DNA from: Candidatus Poriferihabitaceae bacterium
GTDB lineage: Bacteria > Pseudomonadota > Gammaproteobacteria > Arenicellales > Poriferihabitantaceae
Reading direction: 5' to 3'
Assembly (NCBI GenBank): GCA_965249035.1
Contig: CBDFKV010000003.1
Coordinates: 66,814-130,813, forward strand
DNA: 64,000 bases
Position numbers and translations under genes: made by a program. Shown in pieces: positions 4,786 to 32,252 of the stretch. Under the pieces are notes generated by a model. That model was not told the DNA's origin, did not search any database, and saw only the letters and a list, made by a program, of their open reading frames with translations. The number at the start of each line of letters is the position of its first letter. Position 1 is the first letter of the stretch.

Positions 4786-6600
4786 ATGTTACGACGTATC
4801 ATTTTTCCTACCGTATTGGCGTTGCTCGCCTACGGTTTCTGGATCAGCCCTGATTTCAAGCAAATCGCCGCTGGTGTTTCTATTTTCTTGTTCGGCATGC
4901 TGTTTCTTGAAGAAGGGTTCAAAGCCTTTTCGGGGGGTGTTCTAGAACGGTTGCTGCGCAAAACGACCAGCAGCACCTGGAAAGCACTCAGCTTTGGCGT
5001 CGTCAGCACCAGCATTATGCAATCGAGCTCGCTGGTTTCGGTCATCACCATTTCTTTTCTTGGCGCTGGGCTGATTTCATTGGCTGCGGGTATTGGCATT
5101 ATATTTGGCGCCAACCTCGGCACCACGACCGGTGCCTGGCTAATCGCCGGTTTTGGCATGAAAGTCAAGATCTCAGCTTACGCCATGCCAATGCTGGTGT
5201 TTGGCATCATTTTAGTCTTCCAGAAATCAAAATCATTTAAAGGGTTTGGCTATATCCTTGCTGGCCTGGGCTTTTTATTCCTCGGCATCCACTACATGAA
5301 GGAAGGGTTTGAAGCCTTTCGCGATACGATTGATTTGACCCGATTCGCGGTCGAAGGCTATCCCGGTATCATCATATTCACCTTGATTGGCGCATTTGCA
5401 ACCGTCGTCATGCAGTCTAGCCATGCGACGTTGGTGATCATCATCACCGCACTCTCGGCCGGACAAATCACTTACGAAAATGCCCTGGCGCTGGCGATCG
5501 GTGCCAATATTGGCACTACCATTACGGCAATATTGGGTGCGATGAGTTCCAACGTACAAGGCCGCCGATTAGCTGCGGCTCACCTAATTTTTAACGTAGT
5601 CACCGCCGCAATTGCGATCGCCCTGATTTATCAAATAGCCGATATGGTTGATTGGTTTAGCTCGCTGCTTGGTATCGACAGTGAAAACTATACGTTGAAG
5701 CTAGCCGTCTTTCACACGATATTTAACTTAATCGGCATTTTGGCAATGCTGCCTTTCATCAATCAATTAGTTGTGTTTCTAATGAAGGCGATGAAGCCGA
5801 AAACCCGAACCAGCGCCGATCCGATCCACTTGCATGAATCGTCTATCGAGCTGCCCGATACTGCGATTGAAGCCGTACGCAAAGAGACCCTGCACCTGTA
5901 CGACAATGCCTTTGAAATTATCACTCACGGCTTGAGTTTGCACCGCCACGACATCCTGTCAGATCGCGACCTGGAAGAGATTATTCAGGATTCTAACAAA
6001 CCCATGCCGATTGACATTACCGAAGAGTATGAAGCAACCGTAAAAGGCCTTTACAGCGAAATCGTCGCCTTTATTAGTCGCGCTCAGGTTGGGATGGACG
6101 GCGAGCAGATGAATGAGCTGTTTGCATTGCGGGCTGCTGGTCGCGATATTGTTGAAGCGATCAAAGATACCGAGCGATTACAAAAGAACTTATCCACATT
6201 TATCGCCTCGGATAATGAATTCATCCGCGCTGAATACAATCGTATTCGTCTGTTTCTTGCTTCTGTATTACGCCAAATATCCACCGCTAAAGAGGATGAC
6301 GATAGCTTAAGCATGCTAAAGCTCGATAAGATAAAATACGCCATGGAGTCTAATGATACGACCCTGAATGGCGTACTAGAAGCGCTGATCAGAGAGCAGA
6401 AAATCACACCTTTGATGGCAACATCTTTGATGAATGATTCAGCTTACGCATTTGAGGCTACCAAGGATCTTCTGCAAATGGGTGGCATCCTTTTCGCCAA
6501 AGGTGATTTAGCGATGAAGGAAGTCGAACGAAAATTTGCCCTGGATGAAGATGAAATCCAAGAAATTATTAAAACTCAAGAGCGACAACAAGAGGCGTAA
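4786..6600 (+). CDS. Na/Pi cotransporter family protein with C-terminal PhoU-like region
   Basis: A 604-aa ORF. The N-terminal ~340 aa are polytopic membrane with two NptA-type repeats (SSSLVSVITISF.. / QSSHATLVIIITAL..). The C-terminal region is soluble and helical. Confidence 0.8.
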   Translation: MLRRIIFPTVLALLAYGFWISPDFKQIAAGVSIFLFGMLFLEEGFKAFSGGVLERLLRKTTSSTWKALSFGVVSTSIMQSSSLVSVITISFLGAGLISLAAGIGIIFGANLGTTTGAWLIAGFGMKVKISAYAMPMLVFGIILVFQKSKSFKGFGYILAGLGFLFLGIHYMKEGFEAFRDTIDLTRFAVEGYPGIIIFTLIGAFATVVMQSSHATLVIIITALSAGQITYENALALAIGANIGTTITAILGAMSSNVQGRRLAAAHLIFNVVTAAIAIALIYQIADMVDWFSSLLGIDSENYTLKLAVFHTIFNLIGILAMLPFINQLVVFLMKAMKPKTRTSADPIHLHESSIELPDTAIEAVRKETLHLYDNAFEIITHGLSLHRHDILSDRDLEEIIQDSNKPMPIDITEEYEATVKGLYSEIVAFISRAQVGMDGEQMNELFALRAAGRDIVEAIKDTERLQKNLSTFIASDNEFIRAEYNRIRLFLASVLRQISTAKEDDDSLSMLKLDKIKYAMESNDTTLNGVLEALIREQKITPLMATSLMNDSAYAFEATKDLLQMGGILFAKGDLAMKEVERKFALDEDEIQEIIKTQERQQEA

Positions 6601-11104: not shown

Positions 11105-12247
11105 CTAAACCGACAGTGCTTGCTCAAGGTCTGCGATCAAGTCTTCAGCGTCTTCAATTCCGACGCTAAGTCGAACCAAAGAATCAGTAACGCCGCTTTT
11201 AATCCGCTCTTCACGAGGGATGCTAGCGTGCGTCATACTGGCTGGATGTCCGATCAACGATTCTACTCCGCCTAATGATTCTGCCAGAGAAAAAAGACGG
11301 GTATGCGATAACACTTGATTGGCCGCTTCAACGCTATCGTCCTTCAAGCCAAAAGAGATCATCCCGCCAAACCCATCCATTTGAGACTTGGCAATATCAT
11401 GGTTATGGTGATCCTCAAAACCCGGCCAGTTCACATAGGCAACCGCATCATGCGCTCGCAGCCAGTGGGCGATCACTTCACCGTTTTCGCAATGTCTTTG
11501 CATCCGCAAATGCAGTGTTTTCAAACCGCGTAATACTAAAAAACAATCCTGTGGGCCTGGCACGGCACCGGCGCTATTTTGCAAAAAGGCCAATTCTTCG
11601 GCCAAGCTTGAGTCGTTAAGCACCAAAGCACCCATGACCACATCGCTGTGACCCCCCAGGTATTTGGTTACCGAGTGCATGACCACATCAGCACCAAGCT
11701 CAAGGGGCCGTTGTAAATAAGGTGAGGCAAATGTGTTATCAACCGCGACAATCATATTGTTGCCACTCGCCAAGTCGACGACCGCTTTTATGTTTATGAT
11801 TTTCATGGTCGGATTGGTGGGTGTTTCAATCCAAATCAATCGGGTATGTTTATTTATTTTTTCGGCGATGCGATCAAGCTCGGTCATGTCCACAAAATGA
11901 AATGTAATGCCATATTTTTCATAGACTTTAGTCATCAATCGAAACGAGCCACCGTAGAGGTCGTTGGTTGAAATGACTTCATCACCGGGTTGTAATCGTT
12001 TTAGCAGTGTATCAGTGGCGGCCATTCCACTCGCGAAAGCCAAGCCGTGTTGACCACTTTCCAGCGCCGCTAACGCGTCTTGCAAAGCGTCACGTGTGGG
12101 ATTATGAGTGCGAGAATATTCAAAGCCTTTGTGGTCTCCCGGTGCCGTTTGAACATAAGTCGAGGTTTGAAAAATCGGCGTCATGATGGCACCTGTTGCT
12201 GGGTCTGGCTTGACTCCGGCGTGTATGGCTTTGGTTGCGAATTTCAT
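11105..12247 (-). CDS. Cys/Met-metabolism PLP enzyme (cystathionine gamma-synthase/beta-lyase/gamma-lyase family)
   Basis: A 380-aa ORF with the N-terminus TKAIHAGVKPDPATGAIMTPIFQTSTY and the PLP-Lys block HSVTKYLGGHSDV. I cannot assign the subfamily by eye. Confidence 0.85.
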   Translation of the reverse strand: MKFATKAIHAGVKPDPATGAIMTPIFQTSTYVQTAPGDHKGFEYSRTHNPTRDALQDALAALESGQHGLAFASGMAATDTLLKRLQPGDEVISTNDLYGGSFRLMTKVYEKYGITFHFVDMTELDRIAEKINKHTRLIWIETPTNPTMKIINIKAVVDLASGNNMIVAVDNTFASPYLQRPLELGADVVMHSVTKYLGGHSDVVMGALVLNDSSLAEELAFLQNSAGAVPGPQDCFLVLRGLKTLHLRMQRHCENGEVIAHWLRAHDAVAYVNWPGFEDHHNHDIAKSQMDGFGGMISFGLKDDSVEAANQVLSHTRLFSLAESLGGVESLIGHPASMTHASIPREERIKSGVTDSLVRLSVGIEDAEDLIADLEQALSV

Positions 12248-12430
12248 GGTTGCTATCTAAAGATTATAAGGAAGAACAGACAATGACCGGCCAGTGAGAA
12301 GTTGGCCCAAGCTGGTTTGAATTTAACAACCAGCGGCTATTAGCCTAGTTAAAGCCAGTAAAGATCGTAGTGTATTTAAACACACAGATCCAAGCGCTTC
12401 GGACTATTTCTTCTGCTTGTTAGGGTCGAC

Positions 12431-13330
12431 TCAAATGGTAGGCAAAATAAAATCAGGAATAATGCCGCTTCGTTCGATGTAATGATTCACGTCGTGGCCC
12501 TTAAACAGACCATGATCTGTCACCAAAGCTGTACTCAATCCAGCCGCTGCACCCCCTAAAATATCAGTGTGCAAAGTATCACCAATCATCAATACCCGCG
12601 TTGGGCTTGACTGATTGATACGATCAGTTGCCTCTTTAAAAACGTGGCCAAAGGGTTTGCCAAAGAATTGCGGCTCTATCGTCGTTGCGTCGGCTATGGC
12701 ATGTGCATAAAACCCCGGCTGAAGAGAAAACCGAGTTTCTCTGGGCGCGACAATATCCGGGTTTCCCACCAAAAATGGACGTGGGCTTGCCTTGAGTGAA
12801 TTAATCAGCAATTCTTGTTGCTGCTGCGTCCAATCTCGCACACCTAAAAACAAGAAGCCATCGACCTGATCAAATTGGCTCTGTTCCTCACCCAATAACG
12901 CTAAATTAAAATCTAATTGCTCAATGCCCGATTCAGGCAGCGCAACCACACCCCAATGCATCGTGTCTGGATAGCCTGACAGCGCAGAGAACAACAGCTC
13001 ACGGCTGGAAATCACCTGTTCAATCTCAAAATTGAACCCCAGTTTTTGATATTTGGCTTGCAGCCCTTGCAGCAGAAAACTACCGGCATTGGTCACTACC
13101 AGCGTCGGTTTACCCATTTTCTGCAACTGTGCAACACAGTGCGCGGCACCTGGAACGGCTTGTTCGCCCACATTAAGCACGCCAAAGGCATCAAATAAAA
13201 AAGCGTCAAACTGATCAGCAATTTGTAGCAAATTTAGGGCGGTGCGCGACGACTCAGGAAACGAAGCCTGAGGCAATCGGGCACGCACCGCCTGATAACG
13301 CGAAAACGCGAATTCAGCATCAATTTTCAT
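12431..13330 (-). CDS. HAD-superfamily class IIA hydrolase
   Basis: Motif I FLFDAFGVLNVG (the DxxGVL of HAD-IIA), VVTNAG, and a C-terminal IGDTLHTDILGG. It is the last gene of the phn-type transporter run, 44 nt after phnE. Confidence 0.75.
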   Translation of the reverse strand: MKIDAEFAFSRYQAVRARLPQASFPESSRTALNLLQIADQFDAFLFDAFGVLNVGEQAVPGAAHCVAQLQKMGKPTLVVTNAGSFLLQGLQAKYQKLGFNFEIEQVISSRELLFSALSGYPDTMHWGVVALPESGIEQLDFNLALLGEEQSQFDQVDGFLFLGVRDWTQQQQELLINSLKASPRPFLVGNPDIVAPRETRFSLQPGFYAHAIADATTIEPQFFGKPFGHVFKEATDRINQSSPTRVLMIGDTLHTDILGGAAAGLSTALVTDHGLFKGHDVNHYIERSGIIPDFILPTI

Positions 13331-13374
13331 TGTTTTTTTAAGCTTAACGACGGTCGTCGGCCTAATCCTTTTTT

Positions 13375-14193
13375 CTAAATAATGGCAGCACGCACCTTAG
13401 CAGATACCCATTCGCTAATAATCACTGCGGCGAAAATGGTAAGCAAGATGAGCGAGACTTGCGGCCACGCTAAAATATTGAGCGATGATTGTAATTGCAA
13501 ACCGATGCCACCGGCACCGACTAAGCCTAGCACCGTGGACTCTCGAATGTTGATGTCCCAGCGAAACACCGATATCCCTGCGAACGTGGGCAATAGCTGC
13601 GGGACGATCCCATAAGCAATAATTTGCGCGCGGCTCGCACCCGTCGCCTGAATCGCTTCAACTTGTTTGATGTCTACTTCTTCAATCGCTTCGTAGAGTA
13701 GTTTGGCCAAAAAGCCAACCGAACGCAGACTTATCGCCAGTAATCCTGCGAACACGCCAGGGCCAATGATGGTAACGAACAGCACCGCCCAGATAATAGA
13801 ATTGATTGATCGTGAGCTGACAATGATTAACAATGCCAAAGGCCGTGCAATTAGTTTGCTGGGAGTCGTATTCTTGGCCGCCAAAAACGCTACAGGCACC
13901 GCCAAAAAGAGCGCGATAAAAGTACCCAGAGTTGCAATGTTGATCGTGTCCCATAAGGGCCGCCACAATTTCTCGATATAAGACCACTTAGGCGGCGTAG
14001 CGCGGTTCCAAATATCGCCAGCAATGCGTGATGCGTCCTGGACAAAAACCCAATTGGTGACTTCCGCTATAAACTGCCAGCTAAACATAAACACCGCCAC
14101 ACCCACCAACCACCCAAACCAGATCAGAAGCTGACGATTACGATCACGTCGCTGCCAGTGTTTCGGTGGTGATGTAGTTTCAGAGGCAGGCAT
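13375..14193 (-). CDS. phnE: phosphonate-type ABC transporter permease
   Basis: A polytopic 272-aa ORF with the PhnE signature EAIQATGASRAQIIAYGIVPQLLP. Confidence 0.85.
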   Translation of the reverse strand: MPASETTSPPKHWQRRDRNRQLLIWFGWLVGVAVFMFSWQFIAEVTNWVFVQDASRIAGDIWNRATPPKWSYIEKLWRPLWDTINIATLGTFIALFLAVPVAFLAAKNTTPSKLIARPLALLIIVSSRSINSIIWAVLFVTIIGPGVFAGLLAISLRSVGFLAKLLYEAIEEVDIKQVEAIQATGASRAQIIAYGIVPQLLPTFAGISVFRWDINIRESTVLGLVGAGGIGLQLQSSLNILAWPQVSLILLTIFAAVIISEWVSAKVRAAII

Positions 14194-15002
14194 TATTTAA
14201 GCTTGGCCCGGACGAAACTGGAGATATATTCCAGCGCGAAGACAATCACAATAATGATGATAATGATTGCGGCGGCGGTATCGAATTCATAGCGATCGAA
14301 AGCCGTGTTTAGGGTCGCACCAATCCCGCCAGCGCCGACTAAGCCCACCACCGAAGAATGCCTGAAATTAGTGTCCAGACGATACATACTCAAACCCACC
14401 AGACGCGGCATAAATTGAGGTTGTACGCTGTAATTCAGCCATTGCAGCCAGGACGCCCCGGTCGATTTAACCGCCTCTAGCTGCGACTTATCGCAATTCT
14501 CGATATTCTCAGCCAATAATTTCGCCAAAAAGCCAATCGACGCAAACGTAAGGGCGATAAAGCCCGCAAAAGGGCCAAAGCCGAAAATAGCCACCATAAA
14601 CAAAGCGATGATGATTTCATTGAGCGTTCGCGATAGCACTATGATGGCACGGCAAACCATATACACCGGCATAATCGAAATATTGCGTGCGGCACCTAAG
14701 CCAATCGGCACCGATAAAAGGACGCCGACCACGGTGGAGGTGACCGCCATTACGATGCTTTCACCAATACCGCTGACGATTGCTGACCCGCGACTGGTGA
14801 AATCTGGGTGCGCAAATGAAGTAACGAACTTTAGCCCGCGCTCAACACCCTCAGCTACCCGCGCCCAGTTAATATCAATCGAGACAAACGCGAGGACCAA
14901 ATAAATAGCAACGGCCGCTATGATCGCCCAACGACTCATCGGGTTAGCGATAAAGGCCGGTTTATGCCAATGGGTAGAGGAGGTTTCTGGCGGCGTATTC
15001 AT
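14193..15002 (-). CDS. phnE: phosphonate-type ABC transporter permease
   Basis: A paralogous 269-aa permease with [24 protein letters not shown]. Its ends overlap the neighbouring genes by 1 nt (phnE) and 4 nt (phnC). Confidence 0.85.
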
Positions 15003-15793
15003 GCCTTTTGGTCAAGTAACTCGCTTGCATCAGGTTCTTCAACCGTCGCTTCCCAATCCTCTTCACCATAAATACTGGTCAGTGCCTCTTCGGTTAAATC
15101 TTGCGGCGAGCCATCGAATACGATTCTACCCGCCGCTAAGCCGATAATTCGTTCGACGTGCTGCTGCGCCAGCGCAACATCATGGATGTTCACAATCGCG
15201 GCCAGTTTGTTTTCTGCACATAGCTCACCAATCAGCCGCATGATTTGCCGCGCGGTTTTTGGGTCAAGCGACGCGGTTGGCTCATCAACCAGCAATAAAG
15301 AAGGGTCTTGGATCAAGGCTCTAGCAATACCAACACGCTGGCGTTGCCCGCCAGATAGCTCATCCGCTCGTTTATTCACCATGGCGGTCAGGCCCACCCG
15401 GTCAAGCAGGCGAAATGCGTGATCAACATCATGCTGTGGGAATTTTCGAAACCAACTGCGCCAAAAACCGACGTAACCTAAGCGTCCAGATAGCACGTTT
15501 TCCATCACCGTCAAACGCTCAACCAGGGCATATTCCTGAAAGATCATACCCATTTGCCGACGTGCTTTGCGCAAGGCGGACGAATTTAAACCGGTGATGT
15601 TAACACCATCCAGAATGGCTTCACCCGACGTCGGCTCAACCAGCCGGTTAATACACCGAATCAAGGTACTTTTACCAGCCCCTGACGGGCCAATTAAGCC
15701 AATCACCTGGCCGGATGGGATCACCAGGCTGACATTATCAAGCGCCAAGTCACCCGTTGGGTAACGTTTTGTAAAATCTTTCAGCTCAAGCAT
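14999..15793 (-). CDS. phnC: phosphonate-type ABC transporter ATP-binding protein
   Basis: Walker [10 protein letters not shown], signature LSGGQRQRV, Walker B LLLVDEP. The PhnC-like N-terminus is [13 protein letters not shown]. Confidence 0.88.
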
Positions 15794-15887
15794 CGTTCGC
15801 TTCCACCTAACAGGTTTAGGGTTCGACTAAGTGATTCGATCGGCTTGATATGCCCATACTACTTAGGCATATCAGCGCACTTGAGAA

Positions 15888-16859
15888 CTAACTACAAGAG
15901 TAAGAAATATCATTCGCGGCATCAATCGTGCGAATGACTTCCCAGAATTTTTGATAGGTGATCGGCAAGAATTTTGCCTCGCCAGATTTTTCAAATTCCT
16001 TTTTCAAACTAGAGTCTGCCCAATTGAAACTAAAAAAGGCAGCTTCGATTTTTGCTCTCAACTCAGGTGCTAAATTGTGCGCAACCCCATAGCTGGTGGT
16101 GGGAAAGGTTTGTGATTTATAGATCGTCACCAGCTGATCGTCCGTAACCACGTCACGCAAAAGCATGCGGTTCTTGACCGAGTTGGCTATCGATGCCGCC
16201 GGATAGTCCTTGTTGGCGACGCCCAAAATTGAATTGTCATGCTTGCCCGAGTAGGTCGGCTCAAAATCACGCTCTGGCAGCATATCAAATTCCGCTTTCA
16301 GGATAGCCGAAGGGGCTTTAAAGCCTGAATTAGAGGTTGGAGAAGTGAACGCCAATACTTTGCCTTTGATGTCTTCCACTTTTTCGATACCACTACCCGG
16401 ATAGGTAATGATTTCCATTTCATAGCCAAAACTATCGTCTTCGCGGGCCATCATGGTAAATGGGTTATAGCCTGCGCAATTAACCGCCAAAGGATTAGAG
16501 CCGGTGTTGAACCCAGAAATGTGTAAGCGACCAGAACGCATTGCCTCTAGCTGTGCAGCATTTGATTGAACGGGGAAAAACTGAACTTTTTTACCCGTTT
16601 CGGTTTCCAGGTGGGTAATAAAGTCAGACCAAGCTGCCTCATATACTGCAGGGTCTTCCACCGGCGTATACGCGAATACTAGGGTGTCGGGATTGACAAA
16701 TTGAGCCTCATCAGTGGGCGCATCAGCCAATAAATCACCATCACGGTCACAAAAGCGCTGGTCTAGATCCCCTCGTGGGCATTCATCCGCTTGAGCGAAA
16801 GAGATTGCAAAGGTGCCCGCAACAAATACGGAAGCGATTAGTTTAAACAGTTTCTTCAT
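15888..16859 (-). CDS. phnD: phosphate/phosphite/phosphonate ABC transporter substrate-binding protein
   Basis: A signal peptide followed by a PhnD-like fold (LVFAYTPVEDP..., FTSPTSNSGF, YSGKHDNSILGVANKD). The ligand is not inferable from the sequence. Confidence 0.8.
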   Translation of the reverse strand: MKKLFKLIASVFVAGTFAISFAQADECPRGDLDQRFCDRDGDLLADAPTDEAQFVNPDTLVFAYTPVEDPAVYEAAWSDFITHLETETGKKVQFFPVQSNAAQLEAMRSGRLHISGFNTGSNPLAVNCAGYNPFTMMAREDDSFGYEMEIITYPGSGIEKVEDIKGKVLAFTSPTSNSGFKAPSAILKAEFDMLPERDFEPTYSGKHDNSILGVANKDYPAASIANSVKNRMLLRDVVTDDQLVTIYKSQTFPTTSYGVAHNLAPELRAKIEAAFFSFNWADSSLKKEFEKSGEAKFLPITYQKFWEVIRTIDAANDISYSCS

Positions 16860-17086
16860 GATGTCATCCTCTTGGGTGTATCAGCCAGCCAATATTTCGT
16901 GATGCTCGGCTATTTGAAAATTAAGTTATTTCGCACTCATTATAGTGTTCCCGGCTCCAGTACCACTAGTCGCCAAGGTTTGTAGGTGCGAAAGGAAGTC
17001 TACCGATTTAGTGCCTTGCTGTCACCATCGATTCCTCGCGGCCTCAAGATGCACAAAAACTAAAAGCCTATCCAACCGCTAGTGCG

Positions 17087-18235
17087 TCATTCATCAGGTC
17101 GCTGAACCAGCACGATGACTAGGTCCATCACATTGGTACCGGTCGGGCCGGTGATTAAAATATCATTAACGCTGCGCAAATAGTCACCCGCATTGGCCTG
17201 GTCAAGCGCTGCCTGCGCTCGTTCGGGATGCTGAAAAGTATTGCCATCGATAATTGCGCCCGCCGCATCAGTCGGACCATCGGTGCCATCGGTACCCGCT
17301 ACCAAAACATTGATATGGCTAAGACCCGCTATTTCTTTGGCCAATGCTAACGCCAGGCTTTGGTTGCGCCCCCCGTTACCTGGTTTGGGGGGTAGCTTGA
17401 TGGTTGGCTCACCGCCCCAAATATAAAGTCCGTTGTCCGCCTGGCGTAAAAACGCGCCTAATTCAGTGCTGAGTTTGAAGACATCATCATAGAGCGATTC
17501 CACATTGAGCTTGGTGCTTAAACCAAGTTTGGTTGCGTGCTTCGCGGCGGCCTGCCGTGCTAGTTGGTTGCTCGCAACTATTTGAGCCTTAGCCGCAGCT
17601 TTGCTTAGCTTGATATCTCCTATGCCAGAGCCAATGACAGCGATGCTATCTCCTTGTACATCCGATATCGCGAAGCTAACGACCTGTTTACCTAAAAATT
17701 TCTCCAGTAATTGTCCGCCCTTAATTTGAGAGATCGCTTGTCGTTTACGATTGATATGCCCGATATCTTTGCCCGAAGCGATGAGTGCTTTGTTCAAATC
17801 TTGCCATTGTTGCAACGACATTCCTTCGGGCAATTGCTCAGCAATTGACGAGGCGCCCCCGGAAACCAGCAATAAAAGAACGCTATCGGGTGCTAGCTTG
17901 CTGACTGCTTCGGCCAGCAGGCGACCCGCAAGCAGGGATTGTTCATCTGGGATAGGATGGCCTGATTCAATAGTAGTGACTGCGGGGTTAGCGCTGAGAT
18001 TTGAAGATACATGCTCATACTTGGTGGCCACCAACGCGGGAATCGAATCACCCAAAACCGCGTGGGCACCCTGACACATATCGTCAGCAGCTTTGCCCAC
18101 AGCGATAATCATATCGGGGCGGAAGTCTGAAGTTTGCTTAAGCGCGTCAGCGACTGCGCGTTTACCCGCAACCGCCTGGATGGCGGCTTCAAATATTGAT
18201 ACGAGCGTTTTTCTAGCCAAGCCTGTGCTCACCAC
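17087..18235 (-). CDS. glycerate kinase (MOFRL/DUF4147 type, TtuD/GckA-like)
   Basis: A 382-aa ORF with LLLVSGGASS and a C-terminal MOFRL block LVAGTDGTDGPTDAAGAIIDG...TGPTGTNVMDL. It begins 32 nt after the 992-aa gene on the same strand. Confidence 0.8.
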   Translation of the reverse strand: MVSTGLARKTLVSIFEAAIQAVAGKRAVADALKQTSDFRPDMIIAVGKAADDMCQGAHAVLGDSIPALVATKYEHVSSNLSANPAVTTIESGHPIPDEQSLLAGRLLAEAVSKLAPDSVLLLLVSGGASSIAEQLPEGMSLQQWQDLNKALIASGKDIGHINRKRQAISQIKGGQLLEKFLGKQVVSFAISDVQGDSIAVIGSGIGDIKLSKAAAKAQIVASNQLARQAAAKHATKLGLSTKLNVESLYDDVFKLSTELGAFLRQADNGLYIWGGEPTIKLPPKPGNGGRNQSLALALAKEIAGLSHINVLVAGTDGTDGPTDAAGAIIDGNTFQHPERAQAALDQANAGDYLRSVNDILITGPTGTNVMDLVIVLVQRPDE

Positions 18236-18267
18236 CTATGCTCACCCGCAATTAAGATCTGCTCATT

Positions 18268-21246
18268 TTACTCATAATAGGGCCCTTGCAGACCGTTGTT
18301 TGCATAAACCGAAAATAGCTCATTTGCAGCTTTGGTCGCATCGCGCGTATAGCGCTCAATCAGCTCTGCACGCCTATCTGCGTCTTTGGTTGCTTCAACC
18401 GCGCCCCAGAATGCGGCTAAATCCTGGCTTAGTGCTCGGATTTTCTTCAGCTGTTCGCCAGAAAGGCTGGCAATATCACGAGTGGTTACCGCGCCAACCC
18501 CATTCACCGTCAATGCGTTACCATTACGATAGCCAGGTGGTAGCTCCCCCACTAAATTGACGACCTTTTTGAACTGTATGACGTTAAAAAGCTGATCCAC
18601 CGCCTGCTTGGCGCCGTCAACTCGAGAAAAATGCTCTGTGTCTGCTGCCACATGCGGGAGCAGCTCCATTTTTTCGCTGTACTTAGGAAAGATATCGAGA
18701 TAAGGCTGAAGTGGGCCGGAGACCTCACCCGATTCGGCATCTTTGAATAAGTCCGCATCAATCGCAGCATAGCTAATTTGGCCAGAGGCTAAAGCGCTAT
18801 CCAGCGATTGGGTACATACTAGTTCGCCGCGGTCATAGTTGACCACAATCGCACCCGGATTCATCACCGATAACACCGTGCTATCGATCAATTTTTCATT
18901 GGCGAAGCACTTGGTATTCGCATCAAGTGGTCCCAAACCAAGATGCGGGCTAATCACGTCTGCACCGGTCGCTGCTTGAATCATCGAATTTGCGTATTCA
19001 AAGCCTTCTGAGAGAATCCACTCCTTGTGCTTCGGCCGGGCAAAAATAACCACATCCATGCCAAAGGCTTTTGCTAGTTTCGCCACTTCCCTACCAATAT
19101 TACCGTAACCGAGAATCGCAATTCTTTTACTCTCAATTTTGGTGGTGGGGTATTCGACCAGGTTTCTACCGGTATCAAAGTCTTTTGCAACAACCCGATT
19201 GTGCATGGCCTCAACCTGCAAATCAGGTAAGACTTTCAACAGTGCTTTGATAGCAGTTTGTGCGGTTGCCCTGGAATTAAAACTGGGTGTATTCATCAGC
19301 GGTGCCGATCCGCCATCGCCATTTCCACCGCCCCAGCTGTTGGCGCCCATATTTCCTGTGCCAGCACCTATGCGGACCCCACCAAACTCAAATTGACAGG
19401 CGGCGGGAATAAAGGTTGCGGCGGCGATAACCGCATCATATTGTGCTGTTTCAGCCTCGCTTAGTAATTCATCAGCGGTACTTAAGGAAGGCAAATAAAA
19501 GAAGTGTATCTTTCCGCTTTCAAGCGTGTTGACATGAGATTGTGAACCAACATGGAAGACACCACCTTTGGCTTCAATATGCGATTTGACCTCACTATAG
19601 TCAGGGTGCCCATCAACATCGAATCGCATGCCGATAAGATCCGTTATCAATACCTTATAAGGGCGGTTTGAATCGTCATGGCGTGCATTATTGAATGAAT
19701 TCTCTTCGGCTTCAAAGTTCACGCCTTGGTTTGCCAGGCTTTCTTCCAGCACGCATAATTTTGCACGCTGGTAGCAATACTCAATATTCTCAAGCAGTGC
19801 TTTGATATCGTCGGGCGGGCGTATGCCACCTATCCAAGCACGATAATCGCCGTCTGTGCCAGGAAAAGCATTCACGTAGCGCGCGACATCAAGTCCTTTT
19901 TCATGCTGGCCATTAGGAAAGGTCAAGCCTTCATAGCCAAGCATTTTCTTGCTCTGAGCAATAATGTGCTCATGCATTTGCGCATCATTAATATCTTCAT
20001 CCGTCACTTTTAACAAGGTAACGGCAGTGCCTCTGGATTCAGGCTTTTTGACCCCCAAAGTAAATAATGGGTTGTCTTCAACCCATTCTGATATGAGCTG
20101 CCTATTGACAATCGAACGCTGATTGAGCACAGCCACACTGCCTATTTTCTTTTCATTATGCAAGATTGAAAAGGTGGTTTCGGCGAACGCCAGGGTGCTG
20201 TAAGTGTTGATAATACCCCCCGTCATTTCACCCTTGATTGGGTCGTAAATCGGGCCAAGCTTGGTTGTAGCAATACTACTCAATGGCCTTTTCATGTCGC
20301 TAGGCACTGCAATCTTAAGCTGACGCGGAATAGCCCAGGATGGCTCTATCATGTTGTCATCGATCATCACCATGGCGGCTTTGGTCATGGAAAATATGAA
20401 ATACCCTGAAATGCCCCCAATGGCCTTTTGAAACGGGGTGAACATGCAACATTTTTTGAGAACGCTCGCGACGACTTCCTCCGGCCACGGCATCGCACCT
20501 AACATCGAGGTGCTGTCAATCACTGCATGATGCTCTTGTGGATCTAAATCAATCCAATCCAGCAGGTTTCTTATCTCTGATTCGGTGTAGGTGGTCGCTC
20601 CGGTGGTTTCATGACCAACACCAAAAAAGAGTTTGACTCCCAATTTCTGCAAGATTTCTGCGGATGGAATATTGCCCTCAGCATCTGCAAAATGCAGTCG
20701 TTCCACATCACCTTTGCTTGAATGCTTGAGCATTTCTATCAACTGAGCACCCCAAGACTGGCGAAAAAAGCCCGATGCCATAGCGGCATCTGATTCAGGT
20801 TTTGGCGTATCGACAAAAATATGCTGCGAAGGCTTATTGGCCGAAATAAGATGCATGGCGGCAACCGTAAATCCACTGTGTCCACCGCCCAATCCAACTG
20901 CTATTTTGGTTTTGTTGCTAAAACCGAAATAGCGCTGTATTTCCCGCATCATGTCCACAAGGACTTTATCCGCAGGGTAACCACGATGCATGCCTCGACC
21001 CAGCTCTGCGGCGGTAAAGTTGCCAATGACGTTACCTTTATCATCCAGTTTTGGATAATTCGCTTCGAGCCAGTTTTCAAACTCGATGCGTAATCTCCGG
21101 GCATCCATCTCGTCGGACGCCATGTCGGTAATAGGGCCAACGCCGAAGAATTGGTTTTGGGTTCTAACGGGGATTCCGCTCGCGGTTCCCTCCAACGCGC
21201 GTTGTCGCGCTGCTTGTAATTCTTCTATGTTCATTTGTTTAGGCAT
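18268..21246 (-). CDS. fusion protein: SerC-like class-V aminotransferase domain + D-isomer 2-hydroxyacid dehydrogenase domain
   Basis: A continuous 992-aa ORF. The N-terminal half has GLGGGHSGF and FQKAIGGISG (compare SerC GGGGRGQF and AQKNIGPAGL). The C-terminal half has the Rossmann motif RIAILGYGNIGREVAKLAKAFG, NYDRGELV, and LLPHVAADTE. Confidence 0.8.
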   Translation of the reverse strand: MPKQMNIEELQAARQRALEGTASGIPVRTQNQFFGVGPITDMASDEMDARRLRIEFENWLEANYPKLDDKGNVIGNFTAAELGRGMHRGYPADKVLVDMMREIQRYFGFSNKTKIAVGLGGGHSGFTVAAMHLISANKPSQHIFVDTPKPESDAAMASGFFRQSWGAQLIEMLKHSSKGDVERLHFADAEGNIPSAEILQKLGVKLFFGVGHETTGATTYTESEIRNLLDWIDLDPQEHHAVIDSTSMLGAMPWPEEVVASVLKKCCMFTPFQKAIGGISGYFIFSMTKAAMVMIDDNMIEPSWAIPRQLKIAVPSDMKRPLSSIATTKLGPIYDPIKGEMTGGIINTYSTLAFAETTFSILHNEKKIGSVAVLNQRSIVNRQLISEWVEDNPLFTLGVKKPESRGTAVTLLKVTDEDINDAQMHEHIIAQSKKMLGYEGLTFPNGQHEKGLDVARYVNAFPGTDGDYRAWIGGIRPPDDIKALLENIEYCYQRAKLCVLEESLANQGVNFEAEENSFNNARHDDSNRPYKVLITDLIGMRFDVDGHPDYSEVKSHIEAKGGVFHVGSQSHVNTLESGKIHFFYLPSLSTADELLSEAETAQYDAVIAAATFIPAACQFEFGGVRIGAGTGNMGANSWGGGNGDGGSAPLMNTPSFNSRATAQTAIKALLKVLPDLQVEAMHNRVVAKDFDTGRNLVEYPTTKIESKRIAILGYGNIGREVAKLAKAFGMDVVIFARPKHKEWILSEGFEYANSMIQAATGADVISPHLGLGPLDANTKCFANEKLIDSTVLSVMNPGAIVVNYDRGELVCTQSLDSALASGQISYAAIDADLFKDAESGEVSGPLQPYLDIFPKYSEKMELLPHVAADTEHFSRVDGAKQAVDQLFNVIQFKKVVNLVGELPPGYRNGNALTVNGVGAVTTRDIASLSGEQLKKIRALSQDLAAFWGAVEATKDADRRAELIERYTRDATKAANELFSVYANNGLQGPYYE

Positions 21247-23936: not shown

Positions 23937-24012
23937 TGGTGGGGCGTCCGGGTCTCGAACCCAGGACCACCTGATTAAAAGTCAGATGCTCTACCAACTG
24001 AGCTAACGCCCC
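23937..24012 (-). tRNA. tRNA-Lys (anticodon UUU)
   Basis: The reverse complement folds by hand as a cloverleaf: GGGGCGT TA GCTC AGTTGGT AGAGC A TCTGA CTTTTAA TCAGG TGGTC CTGGG TTCGAGA CCCGG ACGCCCC A CCA. It has a 7-bp acceptor stem and an encoded CCA, and it resembles E. coli tRNA-Lys. Confidence 0.93.
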
Positions 24013-24068
24013 CACTGCAGATCAGAGCCAGAACGACTCCTTGAGTGCCCTTAGAAAAAGGGACGCGA

Positions 24069-24097
24069 ATTATCTGGGTTTGCGGGTGGCTTGTCAA
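24069..24097 (-). promoter_or_regulatory. sigma70-type promoter for tRNA-Lys (TTGACA-17 nt-GATAAT, GC-rich discriminator)
   Basis: The minus strand reads cgTTGACAagccacccgcaaacccaGATAATtcgcgtcc. This is a consensus -35, a 17-nt spacer, a near-consensus -10, and a GC-rich discriminator typical of stable-RNA promoters. It lies about 55 nt upstream of the mature tRNA 5' end. Confidence 0.55.
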
Positions 24098-24158
24098 CGT
24101 AGAAGCCTTTGAATTCGGTGAATTATTCTTCCTAGGAATTCTGGCTCCTAACTCCACC

Positions 24159-24998
24159 CTATTTAATCGCTGACCACCGCAAATTATCTCGCCGATGCTG
24201 CACGACAGGCATGCGTTGACGTAATGCGTGCAGCGACGCTAAGTCAATTTCGGCAGTGATAACGCCCTCCTCTGATCGCTTTTCGGCAAGCTTGGTTCCC
24301 CAAGGGTCGGTGATCAACGTTTGGCCCCAGGTCGTGCGCCCACTGGGATGCACACCTTGTTGCCCAGGCGCAACGATATAGCATTGCGTTTCAATCGCAC
24401 GGGCACGGACTAAGACTTCCCAGTGCGCGGCGCCGGTTGGAACAGTAAATGCGGACGGAATGACGATAATCTCCGCACCCAGGTCGCGCAATTGCTGATA
24501 GAGGTAAGCAAAACGCAAGTCGTAACAAATACTGAGGCCAATTTTACCTAGCGGAGTATCGACCACCACCAGCTGATCACCGGCTGCAATCGTATTTGAC
24601 TCTTTGTAGGATTCGGCATCGCTTAGCGCGGCGTCAAACAGATGGATTTTATCGTAGCGCGCGCGCTGCTCACCTTGGTCATCAAAAACCAACATCGTGT
24701 TAGTGCAACGACTGCCATCATCGCACTTCATTCGAAATGAACCACCAATTATCCAAAGCTGCAGCGCTTTCGCTGTTGCCGCTAAAAAGTCTTGGACGGG
24801 GCCGCTTCCAAAATTTTCCGCATAAGCATCCGTTGCATCATCTGCGCCCATCCAAGCAAAGTTTTCAGGCAGCACCGCCACCTTTGAACCAGCAGACTGG
24901 GCTACCCCAAGAAGTTGTGCAGCGGTTTTGAGGTTTTGTTCCAGCTGATCGCTGGAAGTCATTTGGATGGCTGCAATCTGGTTCATTGCCGGTAGCAT
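24159..24998 (-). CDS. carbon-nitrogen hydrolase (nitrilase superfamily) protein
   Basis: A 279-aa ORF with LPENF (catalytic Glu), YDKIHLFD (Lys) and GLSICYDLRF (Cys). Confidence 0.85.
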   Translation of the reverse strand: MLPAMNQIAAIQMTSSDQLEQNLKTAAQLLGVAQSAGSKVAVLPENFAWMGADDATDAYAENFGSGPVQDFLAATAKALQLWIIGGSFRMKCDDGSRCTNTMLVFDDQGEQRARYDKIHLFDAALSDAESYKESNTIAAGDQLVVVDTPLGKIGLSICYDLRFAYLYQQLRDLGAEIIVIPSAFTVPTGAAHWEVLVRARAIETQCYIVAPGQQGVHPSGRTTWGQTLITDPWGTKLAEKRSEEGVITAEIDLASLHALRQRMPVVQHRRDNLRWSAIK

Positions 24999-25023
24999 AG
25001 CACGCTAACGGTGAATCAGAAAA

Positions 25024-25524
25024 TCAGAGGTCGTAGAAAATATGGTTGCCAATTTGGGCAACAATGCGCTGATCCACGCTCCAGGACGGCTTAACTCGGG
25101 TTGCGTGATAATGGGTTGCATCACCTGCCTCAGACCGAGGTGTTCCCCGCATGAACAAGCCTGCAATTCGCAAAGACTCCACCCACGCATCGGCGTCATC
25201 GATCACATGGTATTTCACTTTCAATGACGTCCAACTAAATTGCTTGGCTTGCCAAACCACCTCACAAATGGTCGATGGATACTCATTGCTAATCACACGG
25301 TTTTTTGTAACCGCAGCGACAGCCAATTTACCGCTGGTTTCTTCGCTACGAGCCTCATGATAGATATTCATCGCCAGACAGCCCAGCTCTTCACCCATGA
25401 CCAGTGCAGGCTCATCTTGTGACATCGCGGGGACTACTAGTGTCTGACCCAATAGCAACGCTGCCAATACGCTAATGCGCAAGGCTCGGGATTTGATTAG
25501 CGTTAGTAATGAGTTCGCAAACAT
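25024..25524 (-). CDS. SleB-type cell wall hydrolase domain protein
   Basis: A signal peptide followed by NIYHEARSE...AVAAVTKNRV...ICEVVWQAKQFSW...ATHYHA, characteristic of the Hydrolase_2/SleB family. Confidence 0.75.
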   Translation of the reverse strand: MFANSLLTLIKSRALRISVLAALLLGQTLVVPAMSQDEPALVMGEELGCLAMNIYHEARSEETSGKLAVAAVTKNRVISNEYPSTICEVVWQAKQFSWTSLKVKYHVIDDADAWVESLRIAGLFMRGTPRSEAGDATHYHATRVKPSWSVDQRIVAQIGNHIFYDL

Positions 25525-25640
25525 ATTGATCAGTCTAAAATACTGTACTCTAGAAGCACAAATTTTGAAGGGCCGGCATATTAGCGAATTAGAATATTCA
25601 ATGCAATAGCTCTTTTAGATATTTTTTTGCACTGCAGCAA

Positions 25641-26951
25641 TTAAGCCTCACTGCGGCCGCGAAAGCGGCGATAAGCGAGGCGTGATTTCAGCCCAGCTTG
25701 CATCAGCGGCTCTGGCGGCAAACGAGTGGGTTTATCCAGTCCTAATACATCCGTCAAGCTATCGGATTGCCCGCCCAAGGCATAGTCAACGATCAACCGA
25801 CCAAATAACGAACCCATCGCAACCCCACCCGCGTTATAGCAACCCGCTAGATAGATGCCGTCACTTGTCTGTTCAAAAACCGGTTTAGTATTGCGGCTGA
25901 TGCAGACGCTACCCGACCAGCTATAGTCGATATCGAGACCTTCTAGCGTGGGGAACCGTTTGCGTAACCCTGCAATATTATGCTGCTTGCGCTTTGCCAG
26001 TGCCGCTTCGTTCATTTTTAAACCGGGCCAAGATTCCACCGTATTACGCACCATGATGCGCTGGTCGTCAGTCAATCGAACCGTCGCCCCCATCGGATGC
26101 ACCGATAACGCCCCCCACGGCGCGGGCTTACCGATCGACGTATATTCGGTTTCGGTTAATGGCCGCGTCATACTGGCAGTTAAGGTCAGCGGAAAAACGT
26201 GGTTTTGCTTAAGCCCAAGCGATGGCATCAGAGCATTGACTGCAACGATAACTCGATCAGCCCTTAAAACAGCCTGTGGCAGATACAGCCTAGAAGGCGC
26301 TCCTGGCTCAATACGCGTGACCGCAGTGTTCTCATAGAGCGCAATATTTTCAGGTAAGTGGGCAATCAAGCCATCAATTAGCGCCGCTGGGTTGACCAAC
26401 ACACCGCCATCGGTATGAACCGAATAATGATAAAAGTGCGTGCCCAATCGTTTAGCCAGTGCTTCTGACTCAAGACATTGGTGCTCGATCTCCAGGTCAG
26501 ATAACAAGGCGCTAAATTGTTCCAACTTCTGTCGATTAGCAGGATTGGCGCAGGCATGGAATTTTCCCGATTCATCCCAGTTGCAGTCGATATCGAATTG
26601 TTTAACTTGCTGGCGCAGCCAATCTATCCCGGCCAGATTGAGCTGAAATTTTTTCCGATACTGCGTCAAGTCGGACTGCGTACGTCCACCATCGTTCAAG
26701 GTCGAATCGACGATATAGCCGGAATTACGCGAACTGGCGCCCGCGCCCGCTTGCTCAGCGTCAATCAACACGATTTTGTCATTGGGGCGCAGCTCAGCTA
26801 AGCGATAGGCACTGGCCAAGCCAGTAAACCCAGCGCCGATAATCGCCCAATCTGCCTTGGTATCGTGATTTAAAGCGGGCAAAGGTGAGCGCTTGGGCAA
26901 TATTTCGCGCCAACCGCAGCTTTCGTCATTAATTGGAAATTGAATAGCCAT
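25641..26951 (-). CDS. FAD-dependent oxidoreductase (DAO family)
   Basis: An N-terminal dinucleotide fold DWAIIGAGFTGLASAYRLA. The 436-aa length and C-terminal region resemble gamma-glutamylputrescine oxidase-like enzymes. Confidence 0.75.
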   Translation of the reverse strand: MAIQFPINDESCGWREILPKRSPLPALNHDTKADWAIIGAGFTGLASAYRLAELRPNDKIVLIDAEQAGAGASSRNSGYIVDSTLNDGGRTQSDLTQYRKKFQLNLAGIDWLRQQVKQFDIDCNWDESGKFHACANPANRQKLEQFSALLSDLEIEHQCLESEALAKRLGTHFYHYSVHTDGGVLVNPAALIDGLIAHLPENIALYENTAVTRIEPGAPSRLYLPQAVLRADRVIVAVNALMPSLGLKQNHVFPLTLTASMTRPLTETEYTSIGKPAPWGALSVHPMGATVRLTDDQRIMVRNTVESWPGLKMNEAALAKRKQHNIAGLRKRFPTLEGLDIDYSWSGSVCISRNTKPVFEQTSDGIYLAGCYNAGGVAMGSLFGRLIVDYALGGQSDSLTDVLGLDKPTRLPPEPLMQAGLKSRLAYRRFRGRSEA

Positions 26952-26988
26952 CGAGTGGTTCAGCTTTTAGATAATGGGTGTCACCGCG

Positions 26989-29199
26989 TCAAGCCAATGC
27001 CACTTTACGTAAGCGCAGCGCATTACTGACCACAGTCACTGAACTCAAGCTCATAGCCGCGGCAGCAAATACCGGGCTGAGCAAAGTACCCGTCAGTGGA
27101 TACAGCAAGCCAGCCGCAACCGGAATACCGAGCACGTTGTAAACAAACGCACCGAACAGGTTTTGTTTGATATTGCCGATGGTTGCTTTGGACAGCATCA
27201 AGGTATCTGCCACACCCTCCAAAGAAGCACGCATCAATGCGATATCGGCCGCTTCTATTGCTACGTCTGTACCGGTGCCGATGGCAATTCCGACGTCTGC
27301 CCGCGCCAATGCAGGTGCATCATTGATGCCATCGCCAACCATCGCAACCGTTTTACCTTGCGCCTGTAATTCACGAATGACGGCTTCCTTATCGGCTGGC
27401 AGTACGTTGGCGCGGACTTGATTGATCCCCACCGTAGCCGCAACTGCATTGGCAGTGGCGAGATTATCGCCCGTTAACAGCAGCGTTTGCAGGCCGTGGT
27501 TATGCAGCCGAGCAATCGCATCCTTAGCGTTTTCCCGAACGCTGTCTTTCACCAGAAACAGCCCGGCAAACACTTGATCAATTGCCATAAATACGGGTGT
27601 TGCCGTCGGATCATCTGCCACCAGTTCTGCCGCCGATTCAGGTAATGCAATTTGATGATCACGCATCAAAACATCGTTACCCAACAAGATATTTTCGCCA
27701 TTGACTTGGCCACTAGCCCCCAAGCCTGGGACCGCTAAAAACGCACCCGAATTTGGTAGTAACAGTGATTGTTGTTTAGCCGCTTGGGTGATCGCATCAG
27801 CGATGGGGTGCTCAGAATGGCTTTCAATCGCGGCCGCGATTGTCAGCAAGTCCTCTGCCGATTTATCACCAAATGCATGCGTGGCGCTCAGGCTGGGTGT
27901 GCCTTCGGTAACGGTGCCGGTTTTATCTAGCACCACCACATTAACCTTACTCGCTGTTTGCAAGGCTTCACCATTGCGTATCAAAATACCGTTATCAGCC
28001 GCGCGACCGACCCCGACCATGATCGAAATCGGCGTCGCCAAGCCAAGCGCACAAGGACAAGCAATCACCAGCACCGTCATCGCAGCGACCAGCGCATAAG
28101 CGAGCTTGGGTTCAGGGCCCAGCCAATACCAGAGCACAAAGCTCAGAGTGGCAATGCCCACTACGATAGGAACAAAAACAGCCGCAACTTGATCGACCAA
28201 TCGTCCAATCGCGGGCTTGCTAGACTGCGCGCGGCGCACCAGCTCGACAATCCGTGCTAACGCAGTATCAGCGCCAATTTTGGTTGCCTTCATCAAAAAA
28301 CTGCCTTGCTTGTTGATGGTGCCACCAAAAACAGCCGCTTCTGCGGCTTTAAGCACCGGCATCGGCTCACCGGTCAGCATCGCTTCATCAACGTAAGATT
28401 CACCGTCGATGACACTGCCATCGACTGGAATTCTATCGCCTGGCTTCACTCGAAGCGTTTCATCCAGGCCGACATCCTCAATCGGGACTTCCACTTCAAC
28501 CCCGTTTCGAATGGCCAGTGCCACGCTGGGCTGTAAACCAACTAAGCGCTTGATCGCGGCCGATGTTTTACCGCGCGCACGCGCTTCTAGGGCAGCACCG
28601 AGTGATACTAAGCCAACGATAAATATTGCCGCTTCAAAATACACGTAGCGCGCAATACTGGGTACCGCCTCAGGAAACAACACCACCGCCGTTGAATACA
28701 ACCAGGCGGTGCCAGTGCCGAGCGCAATCAGCGTATCCATATTCCCGCGGCCTGCACGTAGGGACTGATAGGCACCCACAAAAAAGTGTCCACCAACGAA
28801 AACCAGCACCAACAACGTCAATACGCTGATCCCTAACCAAAATCTTTGGTTTTGAGCAAGTGTTGGTAAAAACCCAAGGTGGCTGGCCAACATCAACAGC
28901 GCCCCTAAACCACCTGCAATAATCGCCCGCCACCACAACACTCGCGTGTGCTGCAGCTCGCGCTCGTCTTTGGCGTATTCATCAGCCAAGCTACGCAACT
29001 CAGCGGCTTCAAATCCCGCGGTTTTGACCGCACTAACAATCGCTTCAGTCTTCGCATCACCACTAACATTAGCCGTACGCTCACCCAGATTAACCAGCAC
29101 TTCATTGACACCGGGCACAGCTTGTATTGCCGACTCAACCGCAGTCACACAACCGGCACACATCATGCCACCGATCGAAAAACGCTGTGCTTCACTCAT
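26989..29199 (-). CDS. copA: copper-translocating P1B-type ATPase
   Basis: One HMA domain (GMMCAGC), the CPC motif IACPCALGLATP, the phosphorylation site DKTGTVT, TGD, and GDGINDAP. Confidence 0.92.
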   Translation of the reverse strand: MSEAQRFSIGGMMCAGCVTAVESAIQAVPGVNEVLVNLGERTANVSGDAKTEAIVSAVKTAGFEAAELRSLADEYAKDERELQHTRVLWWRAIIAGGLGALLMLASHLGFLPTLAQNQRFWLGISVLTLLVLVFVGGHFFVGAYQSLRAGRGNMDTLIALGTGTAWLYSTAVVLFPEAVPSIARYVYFEAAIFIVGLVSLGAALEARARGKTSAAIKRLVGLQPSVALAIRNGVEVEVPIEDVGLDETLRVKPGDRIPVDGSVIDGESYVDEAMLTGEPMPVLKAAEAAVFGGTINKQGSFLMKATKIGADTALARIVELVRRAQSSKPAIGRLVDQVAAVFVPIVVGIATLSFVLWYWLGPEPKLAYALVAAMTVLVIACPCALGLATPISIMVGVGRAADNGILIRNGEALQTASKVNVVVLDKTGTVTEGTPSLSATHAFGDKSAEDLLTIAAAIESHSEHPIADAITQAAKQQSLLLPNSGAFLAVPGLGASGQVNGENILLGNDVLMRDHQIALPESAAELVADDPTATPVFMAIDQVFAGLFLVKDSVRENAKDAIARLHNHGLQTLLLTGDNLATANAVAATVGINQVRANVLPADKEAVIRELQAQGKTVAMVGDGINDAPALARADVGIAIGTGTDVAIEAADIALMRASLEGVADTLMLSKATIGNIKQNLFGAFVYNVLGIPVAAGLLYPLTGTLLSPVFAAAAMSLSSVTVVSNALRLRKVALA

Positions 29200-29228
29200 A
29201 CTAGGCTCATCCTACGCTAGTCGTGCAG

Positions 29229-29444: not shown

Positions 29445-29542
29445 TCATATAAAGAATTAGTAGTTACTAGCTTGGTGCAAGAGTCTATGCAGCCATTGTA
29501 CGCCGATGCTCTGCAGCGATGAACCCACACTTGATGAAATGT

Positions 29543-30013: not shown

Positions 30014-30038
30014 GAGGGCGCTTGGCTAATAGGTTTGG

Positions 30039-32225: not shown

Positions 32226-32252
32226 CGGCTGATTCCTGGCCTAACACCGCAG

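Follow-up and report, generated by a model that had tools for sequence, protein, structure and literature searches.

The 64,000-nucleotide stretch of Candidatus Poriferihabitaceae bacterium DNA analyzed here (contig CBDFKV010000003.1; hereafter the window) contains a run of eight open reading frames (ORFs) on the minus strand between positions 21246 and 11105. Its center is occupied by four genes for an ABC importer that resembles the glycerol phosphate importer GpxBACD, followed by a gene for a HAD-IIA hydrolase. Upstream lie genes for a fusion enzyme and a glycerate 2-kinase (gck), and downstream a gene for an enzyme dependent on pyridoxal 5'-phosphate (PLP). An earlier note on this DNA had read all eight as one uptake-and-assimilation cluster for a phosphorylated or phosphonylated C3 compound. 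Its eight co-directional genes, with their coordinates and gap sizes, were reproduced exactly from the ORF list and a recount of the gaps, and its family assignments were upheld by Pfam and NCBIfam profile matches. From 21246 toward 11105, the recomputed intergenic gaps measure 32, 227, 94, -4, -1, 44, and 183 nt. The features are as follows; unit numbers refer to the three-part reading developed below.

18268..21246, minus strand: SerC-like/2-hydroxyacid dehydrogenase fusion, 992 amino acids (unit 1; PF02826 and weak SerC-like matches)
17087..18235, minus strand: gck, MOFRL-family glycerate 2-kinase (unit 1; DUF4147 and MOFRL)
16860..17086, minus strand: gap between gck and gpxB, 227 nt (no predicted intrinsic terminator)
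15888..16859, minus strand: GpxB-type binding protein, called PhnD in the earlier note (unit 2; match to PDB 9LF9/9LFB)
14999..15793, minus strand: importer ABC ATPase, PhnC-type (unit 2; TIGR02315)
14193..15002, minus strand: importer permease 1, PhnE-type (unit 2; TIGR01097)
13375..14193, minus strand: importer permease 2, PhnE-type (unit 2; TIGR01097)
12431..13330, minus strand: HAD-IIA hydrolase, fifth gene of the cassette (unit 2; TIGR01460)
12248..12430, minus strand: gap between the HAD gene and the PLP enzyme gene, 183 nt (no predicted terminator)
11105..12247, minus strand: cystathionine gamma-synthase/lyase-type PLP enzyme (unit 3; PF01053 and NF005871)

Taken by itself, co-directionality is weak evidence for a single cluster, because the window holds other same-strand runs, namely 24159-36789 (minus strand, 10 ORFs) and 40501-61189 (plus strand, about 14 ORFs). 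A comparison of GC and GC3 across the blocks gave no separation of them by composition.

The importer and its fifth gene

In a search of solved structures, the binding protein of the window aligned without gaps over 292 residues to PDB entries 9LF9/9LFB (485.8 bits, E 4.9e-145). These entries show the Marinobacter sp. DSM11874 GpxB in complex with sn-glycerol-1-phosphate (G1P), the ligand in 9LF9, and sn-glycerol-3-phosphate (G3P) (Wang et al., PNAS 2025, PMC12718374). Other solved relatives scored far lower, with 80.7 bits for PtxB (5O2J) and 48.6 bits for E. coli PhnD (3P7I), the score to GpxB being about six-fold that to PtxB or PhnD. The protein matches the fold families PF12974 (203 bits) and TIGR01098 (223.5 bits, above the 112-bit cut-off); against the PhnD equivalog TIGR03431 it reaches 140.5 bits, below the cut-off of 261.1 bits.

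For Marinobacter GpxB, dissociation constants (Kd) of 1.72 uM for G1P and 1.06 uM for G3P have been measured, GpxB proteins overall show Kd values of ~1-2.5 uM for the two enantiomers, and C3 phosphates other than these are bound much more weakly or not at all (PMC12718374). The GpxB of Phaeobacter, only 50% identical to that of Marinobacter, binds the same ligands. Mutagenesis showed that Tyr138 and His199, which contact the phosphate, and Arg223 and Thr247, which contact the hydroxyls, matter for binding; the Arg/Thr pair takes the place of the Glu177/Asp205 pair of PhnD, which holds the amine of 2-aminoethylphosphonate (PMC12718374). All four residues are kept in the window protein as Y146, H207, R231, and T255 (offset +8). 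The protein also carries a Sec signal peptide whose C-terminal end reads AQA.

The remaining importer genes agree with this assignment. The ATPase exceeds the TIGR02315 cut-off (322.8 versus 266.1 bits), and its gene adjoins gpxB in every gpx locus examined. Both permeases score above the cut-off of TIGR01097 (264.6 bits for permease 1 and 276.6 bits for permease 2), the gene of the first overlapping the ATPase gene by 4 nt and that of the second overlapping the first by 1 nt. The order of binding protein, ATPase, and two permeases is repeated in 16 of the 60 genomes sampled as relatives of the window. As judged from sequence, the four transporter genes are a GpxB-type ABC importer, with G1P and G3P as the predicted ligands.

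This result changes the picture drawn earlier. Of the proposed uptake of a phosphorylated or phosphonylated C3 compound, the phosphorylated C3 part is borne out by the GpxB match and the ligand residues, whereas the phosphonate part is not. Glycerol phosphates, already among the ligands proposed for testing, suit a GpxB-type protein, and a PhnD-type phosphonate binder is no longer favored. The search for C-P lyase was extended to the whole assembly (94% complete), where the PhnJ model PF06007 matched nothing; the model did recognize the E. coli control. The idea of a binding protein that lacks a partner pathway did not survive, as the protein does not appear to be a phosphonate binder, and contig 7 of the same genome carries glpK (703 bits) with an adjacent glpD-type gene. 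More generally, gene sets annotated as phnDCEE without C-P lyase in marine Proteobacteria should be taken for GpxB-type importers if the Arg/Thr pair is present, which corrects a common misannotation.

The GpxB-type importer itself has already been described; what is newly recognized here is a conserved partner. The HAD-IIA gene directly follows permease 2 in three to four of the 16 relatives that carry the four-gene importer, namely G033 (68% identity), G040 and G053 (45-47%), and, weakly, G056. Among 80 metagenome loci found with an alignment of the HAD protein, 51 were informative, having at least 1.2 kb of upstream sequence, and in 29 of these a permease gene on the same strand immediately precedes the HAD gene; another 5 loci have the HAD gene divergent from gpxB. 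A sample of 151 genomes was drawn from the family of a Rhodobacteraceae metagenome-assembled genome; as these genomes are related, the counts are descriptive and do not amount to a statistical test. GpxB occurs in 45 of them, the HAD protein in 51, and both in 32. In 25 of the 45 GpxB genomes, the HAD gene is co-directional with gpxB and comes ~2.5 kb after it, right behind the permeases; the same HAD-after-permease arrangement was present in 21/30 loci. The HAD-IIA gene is a conserved fifth gene of the gpx cassette, and the phosphatase-type HAD that the earlier note had recorded beside the importer is a conserved partner across the relatives, the metagenome loci, and the 151 genomes.

Published proteomics of Phaeobacter MED193 is relevant in this context. 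In Table S1 of the GpxB study, "Uncharacterized protein MED193_19469" ranks fourth by induction on G1P (log2 fold change 3.84), with a value of 3.68 on G3P, and the main text mentions neither a phosphatase nor a hydrolase (PMC12718374). By locus tag, MED193_19469 is the fifth gene, after MED193_19449/54/59/[64].

Clustering of the genes that flank the gpx-HAD cassette revealed no further widely conserved partner, the best being a sodium/phosphate (Na/Pi) cotransporter with a PhoU domain in 5/27 loci. Across the gpx flanks of 40 Rhodobacteraceae-type loci, a DeoR/GlpR-like regulator was found in 10 and the Na/Pi-PhoU cotransporter in 5. In these 10 genomes, the DeoR-family gene is directly upstream of gpxB and co-directional with it (L254:4980-5894, L255:5139-5954, and 8 more among L244-L283); the best NCBIfam matches of such regulators are to GlpR, below cut-off, and no such regulator occurs in the window. 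At about 10 other loci, a Na/Pi cotransporter with a PhoU domain is encoded near gpx (e.g., L170:335-2002 and L245:196-1860), and the window encodes a Na/Pi cotransporter at 4786-6600, ~4.5 kb beyond the PLP enzyme. Some cassettes have a second HAD hydrolase gene directly upstream of gpxB, encoding a protein of the HAD-IIA type (266 amino acids) or HAD_2 type (219 amino acids) (L142:734-1534 and L173:3704-4363). In one Rhodobacteraceae-type genome (G076:C6:50436-51341), gpxB contains three in-frame stops and the HAD gene is convergent, which is probably a decaying cassette.

The neighboring blocks and their independence

The fusion enzyme at the upstream end of the run combines a 2-hydroxyacid dehydrogenase domain (PF02826, residues 678-831, 85.3 bits) with an N-terminal part in which matches to phosphoserine transaminase (SerC) are weak (residues 230-496; 48 and 37 bits versus cut-offs of ~450-480). 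Its family, of ~990 amino acids, was found at 338 genome-contig loci with 60-76% identity across Alpha- and Gammaproteobacteria. In the family alignment, conserved features include K274 in an 'FQKAIGG' motif, GxGxxG at 713-718, and H865. A full-length fusion is present in only 1 of the 60 relatives (G020, 76% identity). Such strong conservation of a family that is yet patchy among close relatives suggests horizontal spread. The adjacent gck product has the DUF4147 and MOFRL domains, with its best NCBIfam glycerate 2-kinase equivalogs at 172.8 and 134.3 bits versus cut-offs of 550 and 670. Neighborhoods of 10 kb were inspected around the best 80 of the 338 fusion loci. In 13 of these (Marinomonas, Aliikangiella, Maribrevibacterium, and others), the fusion gene is immediately followed by a gck orthologue of 50-57% identity. 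Other neighbors vary, with an amidase downstream in 9/80 loci, a sigma/anti-sigma pair, and unrelated ABC systems.

At the downstream end, the PLP enzyme matches PF01053 with 513.6 bits and the cystathionine gamma-synthase family NF005871 with 539.8 bits, above the 513-bit cut-off. No orthologue was found beside gpx, HAD, or fusion genes in any locus examined (16 relatives, 80 fusion loci, 80 HAD loci, and 40 Rhodobacteraceae-type loci). The PLP enzyme is taken to be a third unit, a trans-sulfuration enzyme that is an unrelated neighbor of the importer.

The comparative check proposed earlier, for co-occurrence of the fusion/gck pair with the phnDCEE-HAD set in related genomes, was carried out and found the two to occur independently. 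GpxB, a PhnE-type permease, the HAD protein, or the PLP enzyme was encoded within 10 kb of the fusion gene at none of the 80 loci, and the PhnC-like matches near fusion loci are generic ABC ATPases of ~30% identity. Conversely, no fusion, gck orthologue, or PLP enzyme orthologue was detected beside gpx or HAD genes in the 16 relatives, the 80 metagenome HAD loci, or the 40 Rhodobacteraceae-type upstream regions, apart from one distant gck-family gene (L166). In G020, the three parts lie on separate contigs, with the fusion gene beside rpsB-tsf-pyrH-frr, gck on contig 20, and gpxBACD on contig 125. GpxB is no commoner in fusion-bearing genomes (14/40) than in relatives of the window (16/60) or in the Rhodobacteraceae-type sample (45/151). 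The eight-gene arrangement is unique among all loci sampled, and the claim of one conserved assimilation cluster is not supported, as the adjacency does not recur.

Synteny with the relative G010 (L240:8265-9860 versus window 23937-25524) covers genes for a cell-wall hydrolase and a CN hydrolase and ends at tRNA-Lys. Beyond this tRNA, none of the content of the window at 8-23 kb is present in G010, which lacks the entire segment that in the window begins with nirS and includes at least the Lrp gene. Synteny stops at tRNA-Lys; therefore, the run lies on the variable side of a breakpoint.

The exceptional contig is Ga0316204_10000501, from a metagenome (L166:2870-8900). Here, a DUF4147 and MOFRL kinase of 439 amino acids is encoded 130 nt upstream of, and co-directionally with, a gpxB-ATPase-permease-permease-HAD series. 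The kinase is 30% identical to the window gck product and is preceded by PsuG-like and PfkB-kinase genes of the pseudouridine-catabolism type. A recurrent link between MOFRL kinases and gpx was looked for in 40 further genomes and none was found.

Neither the 227-nt nor the 183-nt gap has a predicted intrinsic terminator, the promoter and terminator scans being at chance level, and neither folds more stably than shuffled sequence (z -0.20 and z -1.22, respectively). A TATAAT hexamer is located at 16944-16939, ~80 nt upstream of gpxB.

Possible reaction of the HAD protein and weighing of the readings

The HAD protein has the architecture PF13344 (Hydrolase_6) plus PF13242 (Hydrolase_like) and passes the TIGR01460 cut-off (116.4 versus 100.15 bits), its score against TIGR01459 being just under the cut-off (98 versus 103.75 bits). 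In an alignment of 15 homologues, motif II T80 is nearly invariant, and motif III K225 and motif IV D251/D256 are invariant. Motif I reads FDAFGV, in which the nucleophile D47 is present and the aspartate two positions on (Asp+2) is replaced by phenylalanine (F49); the corresponding motif of PLP phosphatase is D-C-D. In the HAD superfamily, phosphatases and mutases use Asp+2 as their general acid/base, whereas ATPases, phosphonatase, and dehalogenases lack it. Of the solved relatives, 2HX1 is the closest; it has the same DAFGV motif and no assigned function, and a literature search on TIGR01459, 2HX1, and G1P phosphatase returned no functional description of this HAD family. Solved HAD-IIA relatives also include entries titled 'Glycerol 3-phosphate phosphatase', namely 4I9F/4I9G and 7PO7/7POE (E 2.6e-9 and 2.2e-11), the enzymes being M. 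tuberculosis Rv1692 and mammalian PGP/G3PP.

HAD homologues located away from gpx (L284-L301; e.g., L291:1247-5900 and L297:6084-10185) sit among polyol-phosphate-type genes. Their neighbors comprise a UgpB-like CUT1 ABC system, an Fe-ADH_2 protein, a 6-phospho-3-hexuloisomerase-like (HxlB-like) SIS protein, a GolD/DthD-type short-chain dehydrogenase/reductase, and a DeoR/GlpR regulator. For the Fe-ADH_2 protein, the best NCBIfam match, at 141 bits and below cut-off, is NAD(P)-dependent glycerol-1-phosphate dehydrogenase. NCBIfam matches of all these neighbor genes are below curated cut-offs and serve as hints only. The arrangement resembles that of araL (HAD-IIA), araM (G1P dehydrogenase), and araNPQ in B. 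subtilis. In another group, from marine metagenomes (L178, L179, L181, L183, L184, and L195; e.g., L184:7980-16900), a gpx-free HAD homologue is followed by a divergent Lrp/AsnC gene and, ~7 kb beyond it, past an indolepyruvate-oxidoreductase-like gene and two GcvT-like genes, by a MetY-type Cys/Met PLP enzyme gene. The loose likeness of this group to the HAD, PLP enzyme, and Lrp neighborhood of the window is probably lineage synteny.

On the preferred reading, to which a probability of roughly 0.75 is assigned, three independent units on one strand make up the 10-kb run as a mosaic beside the tRNA-Lys breakpoint, with the GpxB-type importer and its HAD partner at the center. Unit 1 (21246-17087) would most likely convert a C3 amino acid such as serine via hydroxypyruvate and glycerate to 2-phosphoglycerate, and unit 3 (12247-11105) would supply a trans-sulfuration enzyme. 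The importer of unit 2 would take G1P, the backbone of archaeal lipids, and G3P from the periplasm, and the cytoplasmic HAD protein would act on the imported glycerol phosphate. In the simplest model, the HAD protein would release glycerol and inorganic phosphate from G1P or G3P, after which GlpK would convert glycerol to G3P and the GlpD-type enzyme would oxidize it, both being encoded elsewhere in the genome; the chances of this predicted route are close to even, or slightly below. Through the same HAD and GlpK steps, the 'wrong' enantiomer G1P could be converted to usable G3P. It is tentatively proposed, with the odds somewhat against it, that the HAD protein with its D-A-F motif supplies the intracellular step so far missing from bacterial G1P use, a 'chirality reset' to G3P. 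The atypical motif could also point to a reaction other than plain hydrolysis.

Several observations weigh against parts of this reading. No terminator is predicted in either large gap, so read-through transcription may cross them. In the 151-genome sample, the HAD protein is absent from 13 of the 45 GpxB genomes and GpxB from 19 of the 51 HAD genomes. The identification of MED193_19469 as the HAD homologue is a probable one, based on gene order. Position +2 of HAD motif I is Phe/Tyr in 15/15 aligned homologues, and plain hydrolysis of a substrate with a poor leaving group (glycerol) is less certain because Asp+2 is missing; glycerol phosphate hydrolysis by this protein is plausible, not safe. 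Finally, the unrelated contig L166 provides a second independent adjacency of a MOFRL gene and gpxB.

The alternative that fares best, though improbable, is a local, lineage-specific coupling, in which units of separate origin have come to be co-expressed, read-through from the fusion/gck promoter carrying transcription into the importer and possibly the PLP enzyme gene as a new C3-carbon regulon. The absence of predicted terminators and stable structures in the gaps, the two independent MOFRL-gpxB adjacencies, and the lack at the window locus of a DeoR/GlpR-type regulator such as precedes gpxB in 10/40 other genomes would suit such a regulon. However, the TATAAT hexamer fits a promoter of gpxB's own, and the arrangement is both unique among the sampled loci and located on the non-syntenic side of the breakpoint. 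Less credible still is the original single cluster, in which all eight genes would channel a C3 compound, phosphorylated or phosphonylated, into glycerate or phosphoglycerate. Co-directionality, short gaps, and the lack of predicted terminators between blocks agree with it, as do the C3 substrates of both units 1 and 2 and the distant MOFRL kinase upstream of gpxB in L166. Opposed to these are the 0/80 fusion loci with gpx, HAD, or PLP enzyme genes, the reciprocal absence in 16 + 80 + 40 loci, the separation over three contigs in G020, the lack of genome-level enrichment, and the fact that no enzyme in the run links glycerol or glycerol phosphate to hydroxypyruvate or glycerate. Least likely of all is a classical Phn/Ptx-type scavenger of phosphite, phosphonate, or phosphate next to an unrelated housekeeping phosphatase, a reading that can draw on the PF12974 and TIGR01098 matches, the PhnC/PhnE equivalogs, and the nearby Na/Pi cotransporter but is contradicted by the missed PhnD cut-off, the six-fold higher score to GpxB, the hydroxyl-binding R231/T255 in place of an amine-binding Glu/Asp pair, the absence of PhnJ, and the linkage of HAD and gpx across many genomes.

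On the preferred three-unit reading, the window holds no new assimilation cluster for phosphonates or C3 phosphoesters. The new lead at this locus is the HAD-IIA gene: within one large family, over half of the sampled genomes with GpxB have it attached to the importer, and its positional counterpart appears co-induced by G1P and G3P in Phaeobacter. The transporter study does not address the metabolism of G1P after uptake (PMC12718374), and the HAD gene is a concrete candidate for bacterial metabolism of this archaeal enantiomer.

Comparison with known systems

The fusion and gck genes resemble the pair found in Marinomonas, Aliikangiella, Maribrevibacterium, and other genera, where the fusion proteins show 60-76% full-length identity and gck is directly downstream in 13/80 loci. 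Unlike in the window, no gpx cassette adjoins the pair elsewhere, and the fusion proteins there are uncharacterized, being annotated as 'NAD(P)-dependent oxidoreductase' or 'phosphoglycerate dehydrogenase'. With the HAD-IIA G3P phosphatases, the window HAD protein shares the Hydrolase_6 plus Hydrolase_like architecture, a C2 cap, the nucleophilic Asp, motifs II-IV, and a genomic context of glycerol phosphate; it differs in that the similarity is distant and motif I reads D-A-F instead of D-x-D. E. coli PhnCDE and P. stutzeri PtxABC belong to the same ABC subfamily as the window importer, with binding proteins of the same fold family, whereas the window protein misses the PhnD equivalog cut-off, has changed residues around the substrate tail, and has no C-P lyase or ptxD partner.

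The closest known system is GpxBACD (PhnT family, TC 3.A.1.9) of Phaeobacter sp. MED193 and Marinobacter sp. DSM11874, for which four transporter genes were named and the downstream HAD-IIA gene was not discussed (PMC12718374). The window locus differs from it in having no adjoining DeoR/GlpR-type regulator or histidine kinase, and its ligands are predicted ones. Otherwise, the two systems have the same gene set in the same order, and the window binding protein aligns to crystallized GpxB without gaps, with the four ligand residues and the signal peptide in place.

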